Of a DNA stretch of 64,000 nt, positions 1-6,373 are shown piece after piece; within the stretch, counting starts at the first letter, position 1, and every line of letters begins with the position of its first letter. Position numbers and translations under genes: made by a program. The notes under the pieces are model-generated. The model searched no databases, was not told the origin of the DNA, and saw only the letters and a program-made list of their open reading frames with translations. Source of the DNA: Flavobacteriaceae bacterium (lineage in GTDB: Bacteria; Bacteroidota; Bacteroidia; Flavobacteriales; Flavobacteriaceae); the NCBI GenBank assembly GCA_947446635.1, contig CANFHF010000009.1, forward strand, positions 494 to 64,493. The letters run 5' to 3'.

Positions 1-55
1 CGTTCAGTTATGGTTCGCCTTTGTTTCTATTTCACCTTATTACATTAAATCCAAT

Positions 56-2458
56 CTAATCAAAATTAATTTCGGGATATTTACAAATCTTTTTGGTTTT
101 TCTCACTATTAATCCACTGTTAATTTCGTCAACTATGTTGTGATATTTATGATATTCCTTTAAAAAAATATCCCCTTTATAATATGCGTCTTCAATTGAT
201 ACGTGATTGAATACACTATTTTTTAAATCTGTATCAAAAACATTTTCAATGTCGGTAACCACTTTTATTGAGTGCGTTTTGTACGCTTTATCAAATTGCT
301 TTGCGCCCGCCTTAATGTCATTGTTATCGGTTTTGTTAATCATATTCATTAATTCGGCTTTGAGTTGGTTTTGAATATCGACTTCTTTATTAATTTGTAA
401 ATCGCTATCACGTCCAGCAACCTCACAAAGAATTAAAAACAGTTGTTGTGCCGTGGCTCTATTATTTACTAACCGATTCAATGCCTTTAATTCATTTTCG
501 TAACTCGAAACCCTTTTCTTTAAAAATGCGTTTTGTTGTTGTGGTTTTAACGATATGCACTTAAAAGTTACGCTCTTTATACTACTATTATAAAGAGAGT
601 AACTCTTAACTCGTTTTCGTCCTTGCCTATGTAATCCACTACATAAAATATTAAACTTTTTAATAATAGCATACGTCAATAAGTTGTTGATTTTACGCCC
701 TGTTATTATAGCTTCATTCAAAAAACCATAATCATTGTTTGTTATGCGTTCCTGTAATAAATCATACAATTCAAAGTAATTATTTTTAATTGTCATTTTG
801 CCCCGTGCTTCATTTAATGCGTTAAGAAAATCAATTCTGTATTGAAAATTTAAGTTTTCTATTAAATCAAAATCCCTGGTCTTTGTTGTAATAAGTGAAG
901 CATTATATTGATACTTCATAACCTTAAAAAACATAGCACGAACATTAAAAACGTTATTACTAAATTCTCTAATGTGTTTCAATATTAAATAGACGTGCAT
1001 CGGGTTTGTAGGTTGTTTGTTTAAATATTCTAATGTAGAAAACATAACAGTGCAATTATAATTAAACGTGTCGGAATTGGCTTTAAAATTGTTTGTATTA
1101 AATCCCGCGCTTATGTATTCATACTTTGAATTGTAAAATTTAAAACCGTTTGCCGTGCCTTTAACTTTAGGTTTGATTGCTTCATACTTTGACGTTAAAT
1201 TTAAACCCTGTGGAATACTTCCGATATAAGCATAAGGCAAACGTTTATTTGACAAACTAAAACTTTCTTTTATAGCTGGGCGGTTAAGTTCTTTATATCC
1301 AAAATCACAATTTGGAATAACTTTTAAATTATAACATTCGGCTTTTGTCTTTGTGTCTATAAAATATAAAGCATCGTGCAACCGTGCGCCCCGTTCTAAA
1401 TTGTTTTGAGCGACAAAGGTCTTTATTGCTTTGTCTTCTCGACGTGTCATAAATTGAAAAAACTTTAAATGGTCATTGTGCGTGAAATACAATAACATTG
1501 TAATATGTTTTGACGCATAACCACACGATAAAAAAAAGTCAGCCGTAAAGTCTTTGGTTTTATATTCTCGACTGTTGCAAATGGTGTTATACATTTTCTT
1601 TGCTTCGCTTCGTGAAATATTTTTTGACTTCATTAAATCATTATAAACGTGGTCTTTTTGCTTTGCTCCCGTTAATGCGTCCAAGAAAGTAGGGAATGCG
1701 CTCTTTATATCACATTCAATTATTTTAAATGGCGTTAATGGTCGCAATTGTCGTGACGTTTTCGTTAATGGGTTGTATTCTCGATTATCTTTAATCAATA
1801 TATTAAAATGTGTTGTAGGTAATTTTAATTCTTTACATACCATAAACAAAATATAATAATACCATTGATTAACTAATGTAAAACCATTTATAGGTATATT
1901 TTCAGTCGTTGCCGTGTCAATATCATTGTACTTTTTATCTAAATAATTTCGATCAAAATTATAGTTGTCAATAGGTAGCTTTTGGCCTGTCGTTATGTAG
2001 TGGTTTAAATAGTCAATGTGTTGGTGATGTCCAAAATATTGCGAATTAAAAAACCACGCACTTTGAATTATTAACCAGCAATGTTTGAATAGTGGTGCAT
2101 CATTCAATTTATAAAAAGGCACGTCTATTTCGTGTATTGCCGTGTATGTGGTTAAGTTGTTCGCATCAAAAAAACCCTTTACCATTTCAACGGTGTAATA
2201 ACTATCTTTTATTTTATCCGTGAATATCTCACTATAAAAATAAGCCAATGCCAAACGCGTAATATCTGAAAACGAAACCCCGTAACCGTTTTTATTATCG
2301 CCCCGTATATCATTCAAAGCTTTTATAAATTCGGTTTCGATATTAACCGAAATTCGGTTTTGTATATCGGTTTTTAAATTAGAATAATTAAAAAAATCTA
2401 ATTCAATCCATTTTGCAATATAGGTTTTTGGCACGGCTGGTGTTGTTGCCGTGCTCAT
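56..2458 (-). CDS. 800-aa protein with a putative PolA/T7-RNAP-superfamily (TV-Pol-like) polymerase domain
   Basis: Ordered motifs REYNPLTKTSRQLR (aa 226-239), IECDIKSAFP (D250, motif A), RSEAKK (R283/K287, motif B), RLHDALYF (H361/D362, motif C). Flanking regions not recognised. Confidence 0.6.
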   Translation of the reverse strand: MSTATTPAVPKTYIAKWIELDFFNYSNLKTDIQNRISVNIETEFIKALNDIRGDNKNGYGVSFSDITRLALAYFYSEIFTDKIKDSYYTVEMVKGFFDANNLTTYTAIHEIDVPFYKLNDAPLFKHCWLIIQSAWFFNSQYFGHHQHIDYLNHYITTGQKLPIDNYNFDRNYLDKKYNDIDTATTENIPINGFTLVNQWYYYILFMVCKELKLPTTHFNILIKDNREYNPLTKTSRQLRPLTPFKIIECDIKSAFPTFLDALTGAKQKDHVYNDLMKSKNISRSEAKKMYNTICNSREYKTKDFTADFFLSCGYASKHITMLLYFTHNDHLKFFQFMTRREDKAIKTFVAQNNLERGARLHDALYFIDTKTKAECYNLKVIPNCDFGYKELNRPAIKESFSLSNKRLPYAYIGSIPQGLNLTSKYEAIKPKVKGTANGFKFYNSKYEYISAGFNTNNFKANSDTFNYNCTVMFSTLEYLNKQPTNPMHVYLILKHIREFSNNVFNVRAMFFKVMKYQYNASLITTKTRDFDLIENLNFQYRIDFLNALNEARGKMTIKNNYFELYDLLQERITNNDYGFLNEAIITGRKINNLLTYAIIKKFNILCSGLHRQGRKRVKSYSLYNSSIKSVTFKCISLKPQQQNAFLKKRVSSYENELKALNRLVNNRATAQQLFLILCEVAGRDSDLQINKEVDIQNQLKAELMNMINKTDNNDIKAGAKQFDKAYKTHSIKVVTDIENVFDTDLKNSVFNHVSIEDAYYKGDIFLKEYHKYHNIVDEINSGLIVRKTKKICKYPEINFD

Positions 2459-2462
2459 AAGT

Positions 2463-2744
2463 TTACACGTTTAAAGGTTGTAAACTTGCCTCAATTTCAC
2501 TGCGTAAAAAGTAAACGCGCGAACCAATGCCAAGCGGGTTTAATCGTTTTGACTTGCACCAGTTGTGTACCGTGCTAATGTCAACACTGAACATTTTTGC
2601 CACGTCTGAGCGTGTCAAATATTCCTTTGGTTGAACAGGGGCAAAATGTTTTAAAAAGTCGTCTAAAACTACTTTTACATCTGCTGTAATTTCATTTTTT
2701 AAATCTTGTGGCGAGGTTGCCACGAATTGAACTGTTGCGCTCAT
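2463..2744 (-). CDS. Helix-turn-helix DNA-binding protein, excisionase-like (HTH_17/MerR-like)
   Basis: YLTRSDVAKMFSVDISTVHNWCKSKRL...GSRVYFLRSEI is the typical excisionase winged-HTH pattern; lies inside the integrase-bearing element. Confidence 0.85.
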   Translation of the reverse strand: MSATVQFVATSPQDLKNEITADVKVVLDDFLKHFAPVQPKEYLTRSDVAKMFSVDISTVHNWCKSKRLNPLGIGSRVYFLRSEIEASLQPLNV

Positions 2745-2827
2745 AACTTAAGTTTTTATGTTATGAGAGCAAAGGGAATTGTTCGCTTGTTCCTTGTGAA
2801 GTACGGAATTGTACTTTTTACGGTACG

Positions 2828-3529
2828 TTATTTATTTTGAGGTTTAAACCAATCTAATGCGCTCGAATAGTCTTTTTTTCTTTGTGGACTTGTGGCTTGT
2901 AGTTTGGTTTTTATTTTTGTAAACTCCTCGCCGTATGTTTCAATAAACCATAATCTAAATGGTTCGGGTTTTTGATGTATAAATTTATCTTCAAATAAAC
3001 ATCTGTAATAATAACTTAAATCTTCATAACGCCCTGTTGTGTTTTTTGGCTTAACGTAATCGTTTAAGATATATTCAAACAATTTAAAACCATTATTTGA
3101 AAACATTTCACCATGTGGTTCATTTATTATTGTAATGTTGTTTTCGATTGTTGAGGTGTTTGATAAATTGAGGTTTTCGGGAATGGTTGTTTTACTAAAA
3201 ATACTATCTGATGCTGTTTCAAGTTCTGATTTTTTAATTTCTAAAAATGACATAATTTTATTGTAACTCGACAAATCTAATTCTATCACCCATTTTTTTA
3301 AATCAAGCTCTCCTATTTCTTCAAGTTCGCTTTTTTGATTTTCCGCTATTGGTCTGATATATTCTTTTATATATCTTATTTCGCTGTCAATAAAATTAAT
3401 TTCATCATTATCAATATGTCGTTTTATATAATATTCAATTAAATTAGGGTAATCACTTATATATTCCTCTAATGTTTTACCCCTGAAACTATCTGAATTG
3501 TCGGAATTATTTAATTTTAGATTTCTCAT
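2828..3529 (-). CDS. Hypothetical protein (233 aa) between integrase and excisionase
   Basis: Long acidic ORF co-oriented with its neighbours; no family recognised. Confidence 0.7.
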   Translation of the reverse strand: MRNLKLNNSDNSDSFRGKTLEEYISDYPNLIEYYIKRHIDNDEINFIDSEIRYIKEYIRPIAENQKSELEEIGELDLKKWVIELDLSSYNKIMSFLEIKKSELETASDSIFSKTTIPENLNLSNTSTIENNITIINEPHGEMFSNNGFKLFEYILNDYVKPKNTTGRYEDLSYYYRCLFEDKFIHQKPEPFRLWFIETYGEEFTKIKTKLQATSPQRKKDYSSALDWFKPQNK

Positions 3530-3557
3530 TCGCTATTTCTTTTAAATCTTAATAGTA

Positions 3558-4880
3558 TTAACATACAGTGCCATTTTTAATTACTTTCATTTCGGGTGCT
3601 TTGTCTTTATGTATGTCATTGTAAAACTTCATAAACAAATCGGCATTTTCGTCTGTATCCTCCGGGGCATTAATATAAACCCTAAAAATTGATTCTTTGC
3701 TATGTCCTGAAATGCCCATTAAAACGGGTGTCGGTATCTTTTTATAGTAGTTAGTACAAAAAGAACGCCTAAAAGAATGGGTAGTTATTAGTTTGTGTTT
3801 TTCATATTTATTAAAAACTTTACGCCCTGTTTTCGCATCATATATTTTACCCTCTGTCATTGTATTTATTTTGGCAATTTCGCAAACTTTTTTAATATGG
3901 TCATTTAGTTTTTGAGTTGAGATTTTATAAGGAAAACCGTTTTCAATTATATCAATAACGTGCGGAGCGATTATTCCAATTGTTATAGGTTTTTTCGTTT
4001 TTGTTTGCACTATGTCTAAATACATATTACCGCCTTTGTATCTTATATTGTCAGGTGTGATGTCGAGTAAATCCCCACCACGTTGTCCAATTTCACATCC
4101 TATCAACAACCATTTACGGGCGTTTTGATACGCTTCACTTTTTATTTCCGCTTTCCTTATTTCATCTAATTCCGAAAAAGATAAAGTTTGAATATATCGG
4201 TCTTCATCGCTTTCTGTCGCTATGGTAATTTGTTTAGCATACGAATTAACTTGAATACCTTTGTTTTCGGCTTCAATGCAGACAGTCTTAATATTAGCTA
4301 TATGTTTTGAGGATGTATTTATAGCATAATTCTTGGTTTTAAGAAGCCAATTTTCAAACTTATCGATTAATATTTGATTTATATCGATAAAGTGAATTTG
4401 CTTTTTTGCTTTGGCTTCGTATTCCTTTAAAATATTTTTTGTCGCTATGTAACTATTTTTTCTACTCAGTGATAGTCCGTGTTTGTAACCTCCTTTTACT
4501 TTTACTTTTCGGGTGTCGGCAGTATCGATAATATTTTGAATGTAGTTTGTGATTAATCCCTCATCAGTCTTCAATACCCTTTCAAAACAATCATTAATTT
4601 TCGAATTTAGCCAAAAAGAATCTATTACAATGGTTTCGCCCAAATCATTATTTAGGCTCTTAAAAAGGAATGATTCCAATTTTTTAAGGTTGTTGAAAAT
4701 TACTTTGTTTTCAGTATTGTTTTGTTTTGGTAGGTCAGTGCTTTCGCTCCAATCTTTAGGATTAATTGAAAATCCGGTATTCAGTTCAAGGTCTTGTTTT
4801 CCTCGACCTAAAATGAGACGGACTTTAATTGAAACATTTTTGTCGGCTGTACTTCTTAATCTGAATTTAATAGATGCCAT
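3558..4880 (-). CDS. int: Site-specific tyrosine recombinase/integrase
   Basis: Catalytic set GQRGGDL (R), QTKT (K), THSFRRSF (HxxR), SGHS (H), FRVY (Y); N-terminal arm-binding-like beta region. Start placed at ATG 4880 (MASIKFRLR) because a TAnnTTTG box lies at 4907-4914. Confidence 0.95.
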   Translation of the reverse strand: MASIKFRLRSTADKNVSIKVRLILGRGKQDLELNTGFSINPKDWSESTDLPKQNNTENKVIFNNLKKLESFLFKSLNNDLGETIVIDSFWLNSKINDCFERVLKTDEGLITNYIQNIIDTADTRKVKVKGGYKHGLSLSRKNSYIATKNILKEYEAKAKKQIHFIDINQILIDKFENWLLKTKNYAINTSSKHIANIKTVCIEAENKGIQVNSYAKQITIATESDEDRYIQTLSFSELDEIRKAEIKSEAYQNARKWLLIGCEIGQRGGDLLDITPDNIRYKGGNMYLDIVQTKTKKPITIGIIAPHVIDIIENGFPYKISTQKLNDHIKKVCEIAKINTMTEGKIYDAKTGRKVFNKYEKHKLITTHSFRRSFCTNYYKKIPTPVLMGISGHSKESIFRVYINAPEDTDENADLFMKFYNDIHKDKAPEMKVIKNGTVC

Positions 4881-4906
4881 ATTTAATTTTGAAAGGTTAA
4901 TCAAGG

Positions 4907-4914
4907 CAAAGATA
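4907..4914 (-). promoter_or_regulatory. Bacteroidota -7 promoter box of the integrase
   Basis: Minus strand TATCTTTG matches TAnnTTTG, 27 nt before the ATG. Confidence 0.6.
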
Positions 4915-4940
4915 TTCATTTTACAATACGATTCCAAAAG

Positions 4941-4962
4941 TTGCCCGACATTTGCCCGACAT
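4941..4962. repeat. Perfect 11-bp tandem direct repeat TTGCCCGACAT x2, candidate integrase arm-type site
   Basis: Seen directly; lies between the integrase start and the att core. Confidence 0.65.
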
Positions 4963-5096
4963 TTTTACAATCATATTACATTTTATTCAATTTCATTCTA
5001 TCAATATGTTGTTTCAGATATTGCTATTAAGCATTGAATTTGTTGAGTTTAATAGGTTTTTATGCGATGTTTTGAGGGCTATTGAAAAATGTCAAA

Positions 5097-5126
5097 CCGT
5101 GCCGGTTCGACTCCGGCTCCGGGTAC
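5097..5126 (+). other. att site: duplicated tRNA 3' end (T-arm plus acceptor 3' strand), probably tRNA-Leu
   Basis: CCGT-GCCGG-TTCGACT-CCGGC-TCCGGGT-A-C forms a perfect T-stem/loop and acceptor 3' strand, with no matching 5' half upstream. The Leu assignment is inferred from recalled Bacteroidota tRNA-Leu ends. Confidence 0.8.
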
Positions 5127-5156
5127 AAAAACCGCTTCGAAAGAAGCGGTTTTTTT
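5127..5156 (+). terminator. Intrinsic terminator downstream of the tRNA fragment (bidirectional, also ends bioF)
   Basis: ACCGCTTC-GAAA-GAAGCGGT stem-loop flanked by A and T runs. Confidence 0.9.
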
Positions 5157-5230
5157 GTCTTCTTACTATGGATCTTCCCTAAACTTGTGAATCAAAAAAA
5201 TGAAGCAGTAATACCTGTTTCATCTCTAGT

Positions 5231-6373
5231 CTAAAAAACAAAAACACTCAACAAACCCAATACTTCCGATATTTCTTCTTTGGTATTGAAGCTATGAAGG
5301 CAAAACCGCAATCGCTCTTGCCCTTCGGGAACGGTGGGAGAGAGAATAGCTTTAACATTAAACCCTTTTCCTTGAAGTTGATTTGCCATGGCTTTTACGT
5401 TTTGGTTTCCGGGAATTATGGCGCTTTGAATTGCCGATTTACTTCGGACAAACATAGGTTTCAATCCCAACAGATTCTTTTCTTGGTTGAAATGAATGAT
5501 ATTTTCCCGAAGTTTTTCGATCGTCTGCTTTTCTGATTCCAAATGTTGATAACCCACTAAAATCGTGGCAACAGAATGCGGTGAAAGTCCCGTGGTATAA
5601 ATGAAACTTCGGGCGAAATTGAGGAGATAATCCTTCAATTTTTGCGAACCTAATATTGCTGCTCCATGACAACCCAATCCTTTTCCGAAAGTCATTATTC
5701 GGGTAAAAACTCGGTCTTGTAAACCCAATAGTTGAACCAATCCTTCTCCTTTATCGCCGAAAACCCCCAATGCATGCGCTTCATCAATTACTAAATTACA
5801 CTTGTATTTTTCGGAAATTTGTGTTAATTCTTCAAGATTTGGCGTGTCGCCATCCATAGAGAAAACACTTTCGGTGACGACGTAGACTTCTATAAGCTCA
5901 GTCTGAAAGCGTTGGATGAGTTTTTCTAGGTCTTCGAAATCATGATGCTGAAACTTATAGGATTTGGCATTCGAAAGTTGGATTCCATCTCGAATGGAAG
6001 CATGGCACAATTCATCATACAAAACCACATCGCCTTTTTGTGGAACCGAACTAAAAAAACCCACATTAGCATCGTAACCCGAATTGAAAATCAAAGCACT
6101 TTCCGTTTGATGAAATTGGGCGATACTATTTTCCGCTTCTTGATAGACTTTGTGGTTTCCGGATAATAACCGAGAACCCGTTGCTCCGTTTTGAACACAA
6201 TTATTTTCAATTAGATACCGATGCGTTTTATCGAAAATAGCTTTGTTTTTAGAAAATCCAATATAATCATTCGATGCAAAATCGATTAAATCATTAGGCA
6301 AAGACAATTTCCGTAAAGCATTGTTTTGCTTGCGAATTTCGAGTTTAGCGGAGAGACTTTTCGGAAACTTCAT
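5231..6373 (-). CDS. bioF: 8-amino-7-oxononanoate synthase family PLP enzyme
   Basis: DFASNDYIG, GATGSRLLSGN, DELCHASIRDG, SVFSMDGD, DEAHALG, TFGKGLG motifs. Confidence 0.9.
   Translation of the reverse strand: MKFPKSLSAKLEIRKQNNALRKLSLPNDLIDFASNDYIGFSKNKAIFDKTHRYLIENNCVQNGATGSRLLSGNHKVYQEAENSIAQFHQTESALIFNSGYDANVGFFSSVPQKGDVVLYDELCHASIRDGIQLSNAKSYKFQHHDFEDLEKLIQRFQTELIEVYVVTESVFSMDGDTPNLEELTQISEKYKCNLVIDEAHALGVFGDKGEGLVQLLGLQDRVFTRIMTFGKGLGCHGAAILGSQKLKDYLLNFARSFIYTTGLSPHSVATILVGYQHLESEKQTIEKLRENIIHFNQEKNLLGLKPMFVRSKSAIQSAIIPGNQNVKAMANQLQGKGFNVKAILSPTVPEGQERLRFCLHSFNTKEEISEVLGLLSVFVF

Follow-up and report, generated by a model that had tools for sequence, protein, structure and literature searches.

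A probable integrative element with a predicted TV-Pol-type polymerase at a tRNA-Leu(CAA) gene of a Flavobacteriaceae bacterium

The DNA analysed here, referred to as the window, is a stretch of 64,000 nucleotides (nt) from a Flavobacteriaceae bacterium, a member of Flavobacterium, whose 2.4-Mb assembly comprises 93 contigs. The window covers positions 494-64493 of contig C9, so that its start lies 493 nt into that contig. Four open reading frames (ORFs) on the minus strand occupy positions 56-4937 and form the core of a probable integrative element. They encode a tyrosine integrase, a protein of variable identity among relatives (the 'orphan'), a small DNA-binding protein with the helix-turn-helix (HTH) domain HTH_17, and an 800-aa protein with predicted features of the TV-Pol (Transposon-Virus polymerase) family. 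An initial annotation of this DNA had described the same four co-oriented genes, and their coordinates were confirmed (Table 1).

Table 1. Positions of the element's genes, repeats and right-hand boundary in the window.
Feature	Window positions	Strand	Basis or remark
Element interior, taken to continue leftwards off the window	1-55		Window = C9:494-64493
800-aa TV-Pol-type protein	56-2458	-	Helical N-terminal region, minimal family-A palm/fingers and ~400-aa C-terminal extension (predicted)
C-terminal extension, residues 400-800	59-1261	-	Full-length model
Catalytic core, residues 194-394	1277-1879	-	Alignments, AlphaFold (AF2), Foldseek
HTH_17 DNA-binding protein, 93 aa	2463-2744	-	Pfam HTH_17, 1e-10
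Variable-slot gene ('orphan', 233 aa)	2828-3529	-	ORF only, no family match
Tyrosine integrase	3558-4937	-	Pfam, PHROGs, catalytic residues
Tandem TTGCCCGAC(AT) repeat	4941-4964	+	Tandem Repeats Finder (TRF); adjoins integrase gene
attR core, 34-nt duplicate of the tRNA-Leu(CAA) 3' end	5094-5127	+	Identity to C17:41608-41641
Chromosomal flank, native tRNA-Leu terminator hairpin AAAACCGCTTCGAAAGAAGCGGTTTTTTTG	5128-5160	+	Comparison with four relatives

The integrase matches the Pfam families Phage_integrase (PF00589; 1.5e-9) and Phage_int_SAM_5 (1.2e-9) and, weakly, Arm-DNA-bind_5, as well as PHROG 1 (1e-22). Its catalytic residues had been described as intact and are all present (R286, H387-x-x-R390, H412 and Y421); both the R...HxxR...H/W...Y signature and the tRNA-derived att core of a tyrosine (lambda-type) integrase are found here. 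The true start is likely the ATG of 'MASIKF' at position 4880, which would give a protein of 440 aa, the same as in relatives. The HTH protein also matches PHROG 66, 'excisionase and transcriptional regulator' (5e-7), and is a probable excisionase or regulator. Between its stop codon (TAA, 2463-2465) and the start codon of the 800-aa gene (ATG, 2456-2458) lies a spacer of exactly 4 nt (2459-2462), as had been reported. Neither the orphan nor the 800-aa protein belongs to a family in Pfam, PHROGs, NCBIfam or PADLOC. Each core gene is single-copy in the assembly, in which no second integrase of the same type was found.

To the right of the integrase gene, the tandem repeat and the att core of the initial annotation were both recovered at 4941-4964 and 5094-5127. 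The repeat was reported by TRF as 2.2 copies of TTGCCCGACAT with a period of 11 nt and a 100% match. The att core has the appearance of a tRNA T-arm and acceptor 3' half, although ARAGORN called no tRNA at this position, and matches, at each of its 34 nt, the 3' end of an intact tRNA-Leu(CAA) on contig C17 (C17:41608-41641), which ARAGORN places at C17:41560-41640. The 22-nt centre of this tRNA-like stretch occurs in exactly two copies in the genome, the second being inside the C17 tRNA, and no third copy of the 34-nt core was found in the 2.4-Mb assembly with mismatches allowed. The C17 gene is the matching tRNA that the initial annotation had proposed to seek at the other end of the element.

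The outer boundary is defined by four related genomes with an empty attB (L059, L060, L062 and L064), in which the AAAACCGCTTCGAAAGAAGCGGTTTTTTTG hairpin comes immediately after the intact tRNA-Leu(CAA). In the window the same hairpin stands directly after the 34-nt copy. The only other tandem TTGCCCGAC pair in the genome is found at C17:41698/41709, in the same orientation and at a distance of 57 nt inwards from the element's other end; these repeats are probably arm-type integrase binding sites, which in the window would lie over the int promoter region. Furthermore, the GC content is 31.3% in the window part and in C17:41642-44056 alike, compared with ~36.5% in the flanks.

Since the intact tRNA and the second TTGCCCGAC pair are on C17, the element is read as running off the left edge of the window: it is taken not to end at position 1 but to continue over an assembly gap to C17. 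Its path is reconstructed as leading from the C17 tRNA through 2.4 kb to the end of that contig, across the gap, and into C9:1-5620, for a total of at least 8 kb. The earlier picture of a compact four-gene element thus holds for the four genes and not for the extent, which includes cargo and an assembly gap. The assembled cargo consists of a tetratricopeptide repeat (TPR) gene fragment and a UmuC-type gene on C17, together with the tail of a gene for a secreted protein of the type IX secretion system (T9SS) type at C9:1-107. The UmuC-type gene encodes a Y-family polymerase (IMS, IMS_C and DUF4113) and runs off the contig (C17:43009-44056); neither the N-terminus of UmuC nor a umuD partner was found on other contigs. 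The TPR gene, in the tRNA-proximal part, has no start codon, and no defence genes were recognised in the element by PADLOC. The first 149 nt of C9 hold the final 35 codons of the T9SS-type gene together with its terminator, and are identical to the start of the C8 reverse complement; a diverged copy of this tail repeat is present at C19:2200. The contig break falls inside the element because this 149-nt repeat is common to C9 and C8. A join of C17 to C9 through contig-end overlaps was considered and discarded, as no overlap was found and C9 begins within the repeat. On this evidence, positions 1-5127 of the window are likely to belong to a site-specific integrative element in the 3' end of tRNA-Leu(CAA), of which they form the part nearest the integrase.

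The 800-aa protein was approached through alignments and structure prediction. No Pfam domain was detected anywhere in the 35 family members scanned. Conservation was assessed in alignments of 35, 40 and 97 sequences and is centred on a beta-hairpin arginine (R226), a motif A aspartate (D250), D260, R283-x3-K287 and a motif C H361-D362 pair. D250, K287, H361 and D362 are invariant, and D260 and R283 are at least 90% conserved; R226 shows no variation among the 35 and 40 aligned sequences and is kept in at least 90% of the larger set of 97. In this diverse set, conservation is seen at R226, R239, D250, A254, D260, Y272, R283, K287, N295, E341, R359, H361 and D362. An AlphaFold (AF2) domain model of residues 194-394, built on the diverse 40-sequence alignment, has a pLDDT of 95.5 and a pTM of 0.88. 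In this model, motif A is represented by D250 at the end of a strand (246-251) with a helix after it, and motif B by R283-x3-K287 within helix 283-294; H361-D362 is in the beta-hairpin 358-367 (motif C), and R226 is in an upstream hairpin with strands 221-223 and 226-228.

When the domain model was compared with the PDB by Foldseek, the best 46 matches were all family-A DNA polymerases (probability 0.5-0.99; query-normalised TM score 0.34-0.55), including Bst, Taq, Klenow, T7, apicoplast Pol, Pol nu, Pol theta and mycobacterial Pol1. Among the predicted viral structures of BFVD there were four matches at E <= 1e-3, the best at 2.7e-6; the top matches are phage proteins of ~400 aa, one of which is annotated as 'putative DNA polymerase I', while a virophage 'helicase/primase/polymerase' and the barbavirus protein divPolA2 came below this threshold. 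The catalytic region is thus predicted to fold as a family-A palm and fingers, devoid of exonuclease domains. Its motif A (DIKSAFP) lacks the Glu that serves as a steric gate in PolA DNA polymerases. Outside the core, residues 1-215 are predicted to be all-helical in the full-length model, in which residues 400-610 reach a pLDDT of 80-90. The C-terminal extension contains no Walker A motif and is kept in the closer part of the family only.

These features correspond to a family that has been described previously. Iyer, Abhiman and Aravind (2008; Biol Direct 3:39, PMC2579912) defined TV-Pol by its thumb, an invariant Arg carried on a hairpin, a pair of Asp residues in the palm, fingers with an Asp and an RxxxK in an HTH, and the lack of nuclease domains. 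A subset has an all-helical N-terminal domain and is found beside lambda-type integrases, resolvases or transposases in mobile elements, and the members listed include Flavobacteriales, Polaribacter, Psychroflexus and Cytophaga (PMC2579912). The predicted activity is that of a primase-polymerase, and the elements were proposed to be 'replicative transposons' (PMC2579912). In the window protein, the hairpin Arg (R226) precedes the palm; the palm is modelled as RNA recognition motif (RRM)-like with two metal-binding Asp residues (D250 and D362); and the fingers follow the first palm strand and carry the conserved Asp (D260) and the RxxxK helix (R283 and K287). Foldseek places the domain in the catalytic-core fold of superfamily-A polymerases, and the absence of exonuclease domains, the all-helical N-terminus and the integrase/resolvase neighbourhood are likewise shared. 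The helices after RxxxK show a weak, non-significant likeness to TetR HTH domains (E 0.27), which fits the HTH core described in PMC2579912. The 800-aa protein may therefore be assigned to TV-Pol by predicted fold, motifs and context, and not by a direct sequence match to named members. A characterised, distant member is CcPol-MP of the staphylococcal cassette chromosome SCCmec, for which, according to the account in Rice 2023 (PMC10061031), Bebel et al. 2020 reported that it primes and extends DNA; in the same account, CcPol, which Iyer et al. had assigned to TV-Pol, needs a small oligonucleotide-binding (OB)-fold partner, MP.

More than 200 homologues of the 800-aa protein, with 53-75% identity to it, come from Flavobacterium, Aequorivita, Algoriella and metagenomes, and all are named 'hypothetical'. 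Wherever the available DNA suffices, the gene order is constant: integrase, variable ORF, HTH_17, often an ORF of 86-123 aa, the 800-aa gene and then variable small genes, with the integrase upstream of the 800-aa gene in every locus. A resolvase was seen in two of the loci. The four-gene synteny, which the initial annotation had suggested looking for in Flavobacteriaceae, was thereby found in Flavobacterium, Aequorivita and Algoriella loci. Contigs of the closest homologues (P0004 and P0006) end ~1.5 kb past TV-Pol, before the cargo region. Within the genus, the catalytic domain is present in 15 of 301 species genomes, usually once per genome, and this patchy distribution is the pattern expected of a mobile element.

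For eight elements, of 7.1-11.8 kb, the limits are set by 13-32-nt direct repeats, which are the 3' ends of tRNA-Arg, tRNA-Leu or tmRNA genes. In these relatives, just as in the window element, the partial copy always has the integrase beside it, with the intact RNA gene on the far side of the polymerase gene; the core genes are common to them, and the cargo varies. Three relatives (L017, L004 and L069) have tandem repeats of their own in both arms. The most similar HTH protein is that of L010 (51% identity to the HTH protein of the window), whose cargo includes a gene for a 1055-aa T9SS-secreted protein, oriented convergently to the polymerase gene like its counterpart in the window element. 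The HTH_17 gene is kept in all nine elements compared. The slot between int and HTH, in contrast, is hypervariable (233-626 aa in the window, L001, L004, L008, L010, L011, L017, L021 and L022): the variable-slot proteins of relatives (234-626 aa) are unrelated or weakly related, with a C-terminal module of ~90 aa common to five of nine.

The accessory genes of relatives nearly all lack a family, the exceptions being one serine resolvase and some HTH proteins, and no relaxase, terminase, capsid or defence family was found among them with Pfam, PHROGs and PADLOC. Neither a conjugation nor a virion gene set occurs in the eight fully delimited relatives of 7-12 kb. The 800-aa protein itself has no relatives in 50,697 phage records, plasmids (tblastn) or IMG/VR contigs. 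In another family member (L074-L076), the cargo region holds genes for an ImmA-like Peptidase_M78, P63C and DUF1508, domains that are typical of phage regulatory modules. A 137-aa ORF follows the polymerase gene of L069 (L069:5936-6349) and is made up for the most part of tandem repeats with a unit of 60 nt (20 aa), in 4.7 copies at 79% match. Tandem repeats downstream of TV-Pol were considered as an origin and rejected, the L069 repeats being inside this repetitive ORF and nothing comparable being present in the window.

An exhaustive HMMER search extended the family to 192 cluster representatives, which have only residues ~217-370 in common. Many of them are proteins of 840-930 aa with a DEAD/ResIII superfamily 2 (SF2) helicase at the N-terminus and the TV-Pol domain at the C-terminus. 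Among the SF2 helicase fusions (P0167, P0175, P0180, P0210 and P0236), the core is C-terminal in most, while in P0180 it is N-terminal and followed by the helicase. This SF2 fusion differs from the published TV-Pol architecture, which involves D5-type (superfamily 3, SF3) helicases.

Evidence of mobility comes from a homologue (P0013, 64% identity to the window protein) that is identical in two metagenome contigs from different samples. One contig, L069 (10.4 kb), carries an integrated copy, with chromosomal flank, the core GTGACCTTGACTG, the integrase, the polymerase, genes for proteins of 130 and 194 aa, and the same core within tRNA-Arg(ACG). The second, L070, starts with the 130- and 194-aa genes at 100% identity up to the right-hand core and proceeds directly to the left arm and the integrase gene. 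Hence, L070 joins right and left arms of the L069 type via a single 13-nt core, with both the tRNA body and the chromosomal flank absent. This is a precise attP junction: the sample contained either an excised circle or a head-to-tail tandem, and the family therefore excises or forms tandems. The window element is real and probably active, the activity of this particular copy being extrapolated from its relatives. In this respect, the initial annotation's proposal of an active family with a PolA-like enzyme in the replication slot is supported, within the reach of sequence analysis, by the conserved module, the empty sites, the attP junction and the predicted family-A fold, from which we infer the replication role.

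The observations can be accommodated in a simple scheme. The integrase would bind the tandem arm repeats on both arms and recombine within the 34-nt tRNA-derived core, and excision would probably be helped by the HTH_17 protein, a role suggested by its family matches. The excised circle would then be copied using TV-Pol, which would be translationally coupled to the HTH gene. TV-Pol most likely would act as a primase-polymerase or replication initiator, because of its predicted fold, its invariant catalytic residues, the position of its gene and the primase activity of CcPol-MP. The segment from TV-Pol to the tRNA may be viewed as a variable cargo bay, filled here by the T9SS-secreted protein gene, the UmuC-like gene and the TPR fragment. 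We consider it likely that an integrative element with the core integrase, variable ORF, HTH_17 and TV-Pol is present and behaves in this manner.

Several results weigh against this interpretation. At the level of sequence, PF00476 detects the host polA and misses the 800-aa gene, a PDB-sequence profile search with full-length and domain alignments returned nothing significant, and hhalign, in which the domain was compared with 30 PolA domains of Bacteroidota, yielded a probability of 17.7% with the motifs out of register. No link to PolA was seen at this level, and the proposed homology rests on modelled fold and motif geometry. The full-length AlphaFold model has a pLDDT of 68, falls below 50 in the catalytic segments and gave no match in Foldseek; it was replaced by the domain model built on a more diverse alignment, for which the PDB Foldseek E-values are 0.03-0.3. 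The C-terminal ~400 aa have no PDB match by fold or profile. In addition, no helicase, origin or transfer function was identified in the element, and its middle is unassembled in this genome, which makes a larger or tandem structure possible. As to activity, the attP contig could also derive from a head-to-tail tandem, and its integrase gene bears a 40-nt frameshifting deletion (L070:2340-2360 compared with L069:1240-1281) that breaks the protein into 313 and 86 aa (intact, 433 aa). This deletion could mean that the element is locked in an episomal state, that it is a defective tandem copy, or that the assembly is in error.

The surroundings of the insertion site show some features of their own. 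Within window 5128-5232, the synteny with relatives breaks beyond the ~30-nt terminator. A bioF-like aminotransferase gene follows in the window (5231-6373), which in many genomes of the genus is found 17-26 kb from tRNA-Leu(CAA), on its other side and in the opposite orientation; this displacement points to a rearrangement, one end of which would lie at the att site or close to it. The tRNA-Leu(CAA) is also a hot spot, as three genomes (G114, G042 and G119; loci L058, L061 and L063, respectively) have different DNA after the tRNA, and two of these loci have tandem repeats of their own (TTGCCAAACC x2 and AAGGGTGGC x2). The tRNA-proximal arm of our element has its first ~50 nt in common with G042 and ~100 nt in common with G114, and the TV-Pol gene is absent from G114, G042 and G119. 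The stretch common to G042 and G114 may be either part of other elements or a scar.

The TV-Pol-less elements at this hot spot in related genomes, together with the unassembled middle, the start-less TPR gene, a cargo unlike that of most relatives and the different synteny past the terminator, raise the question as to whether the copy in this genome is a fixed, immobile remnant, or part of a larger composite island that arose from successive tRNA-Leu insertions. We regard this as quite improbable, in view of the four intact core ORFs, the perfect 34-nt repeats, the arm repeats that match on both arms, the equal GC content of both parts, and the lack of a third core copy or a second integrase in the assembly.

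It is also improbable that TV-Pol is not a replicase and serves instead in repair or translesion synthesis, in transcription as a T7-like RNA polymerase, or in an anti-phage or addiction role, with the element kept by integration only. Repair or RNA polymerase roles were considered by the authors for the structurally related divPolA2 (PMC11348598). Such roles would be in keeping with the missing helicase and origin, the missing Glu in motif A and the presence of a UmuC-like gene; against them, the gene occupies the slot that primase/replication genes fill in other integrative elements, and it is coupled to an excisionase-like gene, relatives fuse the domain to helicases, the sole tested TV-Pol member is a primase, and no PADLOC match was obtained.

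Integrative mobilizable elements (IMEs) of the NBU type possess an integrase gene, small ORFs and a primase gene. The gene set of the window element is comparable, its integrase is of the Bacteroidota SAM_5/arm-binding type, and a serine resolvase is one of the cargo genes in relatives. That the element is an IME of the NBU1/Tn4555 kind, moved by a co-resident conjugative element and with the 800-aa protein in the primase/relaxase slot, is nevertheless very unlikely, for no relaxase or Mob domain was found in any core or accessory protein scanned, and the 800-aa protein is predicted to fold as a polymerase and not as a relaxase. Furthermore, the host assembly has no Bacteroidetes-type conjugation ATPase (TraG/VirB4, Bac_Flav_CT_G), which was scored in a control genome, and no oriT was identified, no systematic oriT search having been made. 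Least likely of all is a satellite resembling phage-inducible chromosomal islands (PICIs), induced by a helper phage, replicated by TV-Pol and packaged into helper capsids: the small size of the family's elements (7-12 kb), their tRNA integration, an int - X - xis-like - replication order resembling that of PICIs and the ImmA-like Peptidase_M78 and P63C genes of some relatives, which are common in phage regulatory regions, are set against the co-orientation of int, variable ORF, HTH and TV-Pol in every locus with no recognised divergent repressor, the absence of terminase, capsid-remodelling or other PHROG packaging genes from the delimited relatives, and the absence of relatives of the protein from the phage and virome collections. 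The satellite-like analogy of the initial annotation finds no support here, and both a satellite lifestyle and conjugative mobilisation of the element are unsupported and judged improbable.

The preferred reading, that of an integrative element copied by TV-Pol, admits a bolder form, which we put forward tentatively and think on balance unlikely. The 800-aa protein could be a self-sufficient replication initiator of PolA fold, whose N-terminal helical and C-terminal ~400-aa domains would perform origin recognition and template handling, jobs that in other systems need a separate single-stranded-DNA-binding partner and a helicase. If this were true, the integrase and a single gene would make up a minimal 'integrative plasmid' replicon of Bacteroidota, and L070, with its frameshifted integrase, could be a free episome.

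TV-Pol enzymes form a large, almost untested branch of the family-A polymerases, whose elements were predicted by computer in 2008, and none of the annotation libraries searched recognises the 800-aa subfamily. According to the account available for SCCmec, only a distant member, CcPol-MP, has been shown to prime DNA. The Flavobacteriaceae subfamily offers a clean genetic system in which to ask how an enzyme of PolA fold starts DNA synthesis and how a small island with no recognisable helicase replicates, its assets being small elements, precise att sites, a natural attP junction, a conserved four-gene core and culturable hosts. Finally, many of the 'hypothetical' 800-aa proteins of Flavobacterium mark mobile islands, whose cargo includes secreted proteins and a translesion polymerase.

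A comparison with known systems places the element more precisely. CcPol-MP of SCCmec has in common with it an A-family polymerase domain in an integrative element, beside a recombinase. As described in PMC10061031, however, CcPol is without the N-terminal TV-Pol domain, has the separate OB-fold protein MP and is followed by a helicase, none of which applies to the window element; SCC elements also employ large serine recombinases and a non-tRNA site, neither of which is found here. The divPolA2 proteins of barbaviruses, described by Yutin et al. 2024 (PMC11348598), and further PolA-like proteins of small size from phages are structural neighbours in BFVD, with palm motifs A-C, no exonuclease and a non-homologous N-terminal domain that replaces the normal thumb, but they occur in phage genomes of 80-85 kb with a regular PolB and no link to an integrase, and tblastn detected no similarity at the sequence level.

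Pipolins (PMC11551731) resemble the window element in that they are self-synthesising and often tRNA-integrated, with a tyrosine recombinase, an excisionase-like gene, a priming polymerase and variable cargo. In contrast, their polymerase is of family B (a primer-independent PolB), and they are larger, bimodular platforms for defence genes, of which none were recognised in the window element. PICIs and NBU1-type IMEs have the small size, the tRNA integration and the order of integrase, small ORFs, excisionase-like gene and replication gene in common with it. PICIs differ by their packaging or hijacking genes and divergent repressor, which were not found here, and NBU1-type IMEs by a relaxase, which the scans did not reveal (oriT was not systematically searched); compared with both, the replication gene of the window element is predicted to encode an enzyme of PolA fold and not an archaeo-eukaryotic primase (AEP) or a DnaG primase-helicase. 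The 10K genomic island of Riemerella anatipestifer (PMC6764341) is also from Flavobacteriales, ~10 kb in size and located at tRNA-Arg, with an IntN1-like tyrosine integrase, and its excision and integration were shown experimentally; it is a precedent for the activity of this type of integrase only.

The closest correspondence is with the TV-Pol elements themselves, through the minimal family-A core and the neighbouring lambda-type integrase (a resolvase in some relatives). The 2008 paper does not define att sites, tRNA targets or an int - X - HTH_17 - TV-Pol module, and the window protein, at 800 aa, has a C-terminal extension of ~400 aa that is absent from the description given there. The window element is a further TV-Pol element of the kind predicted in 2008, and not a new kind of element.

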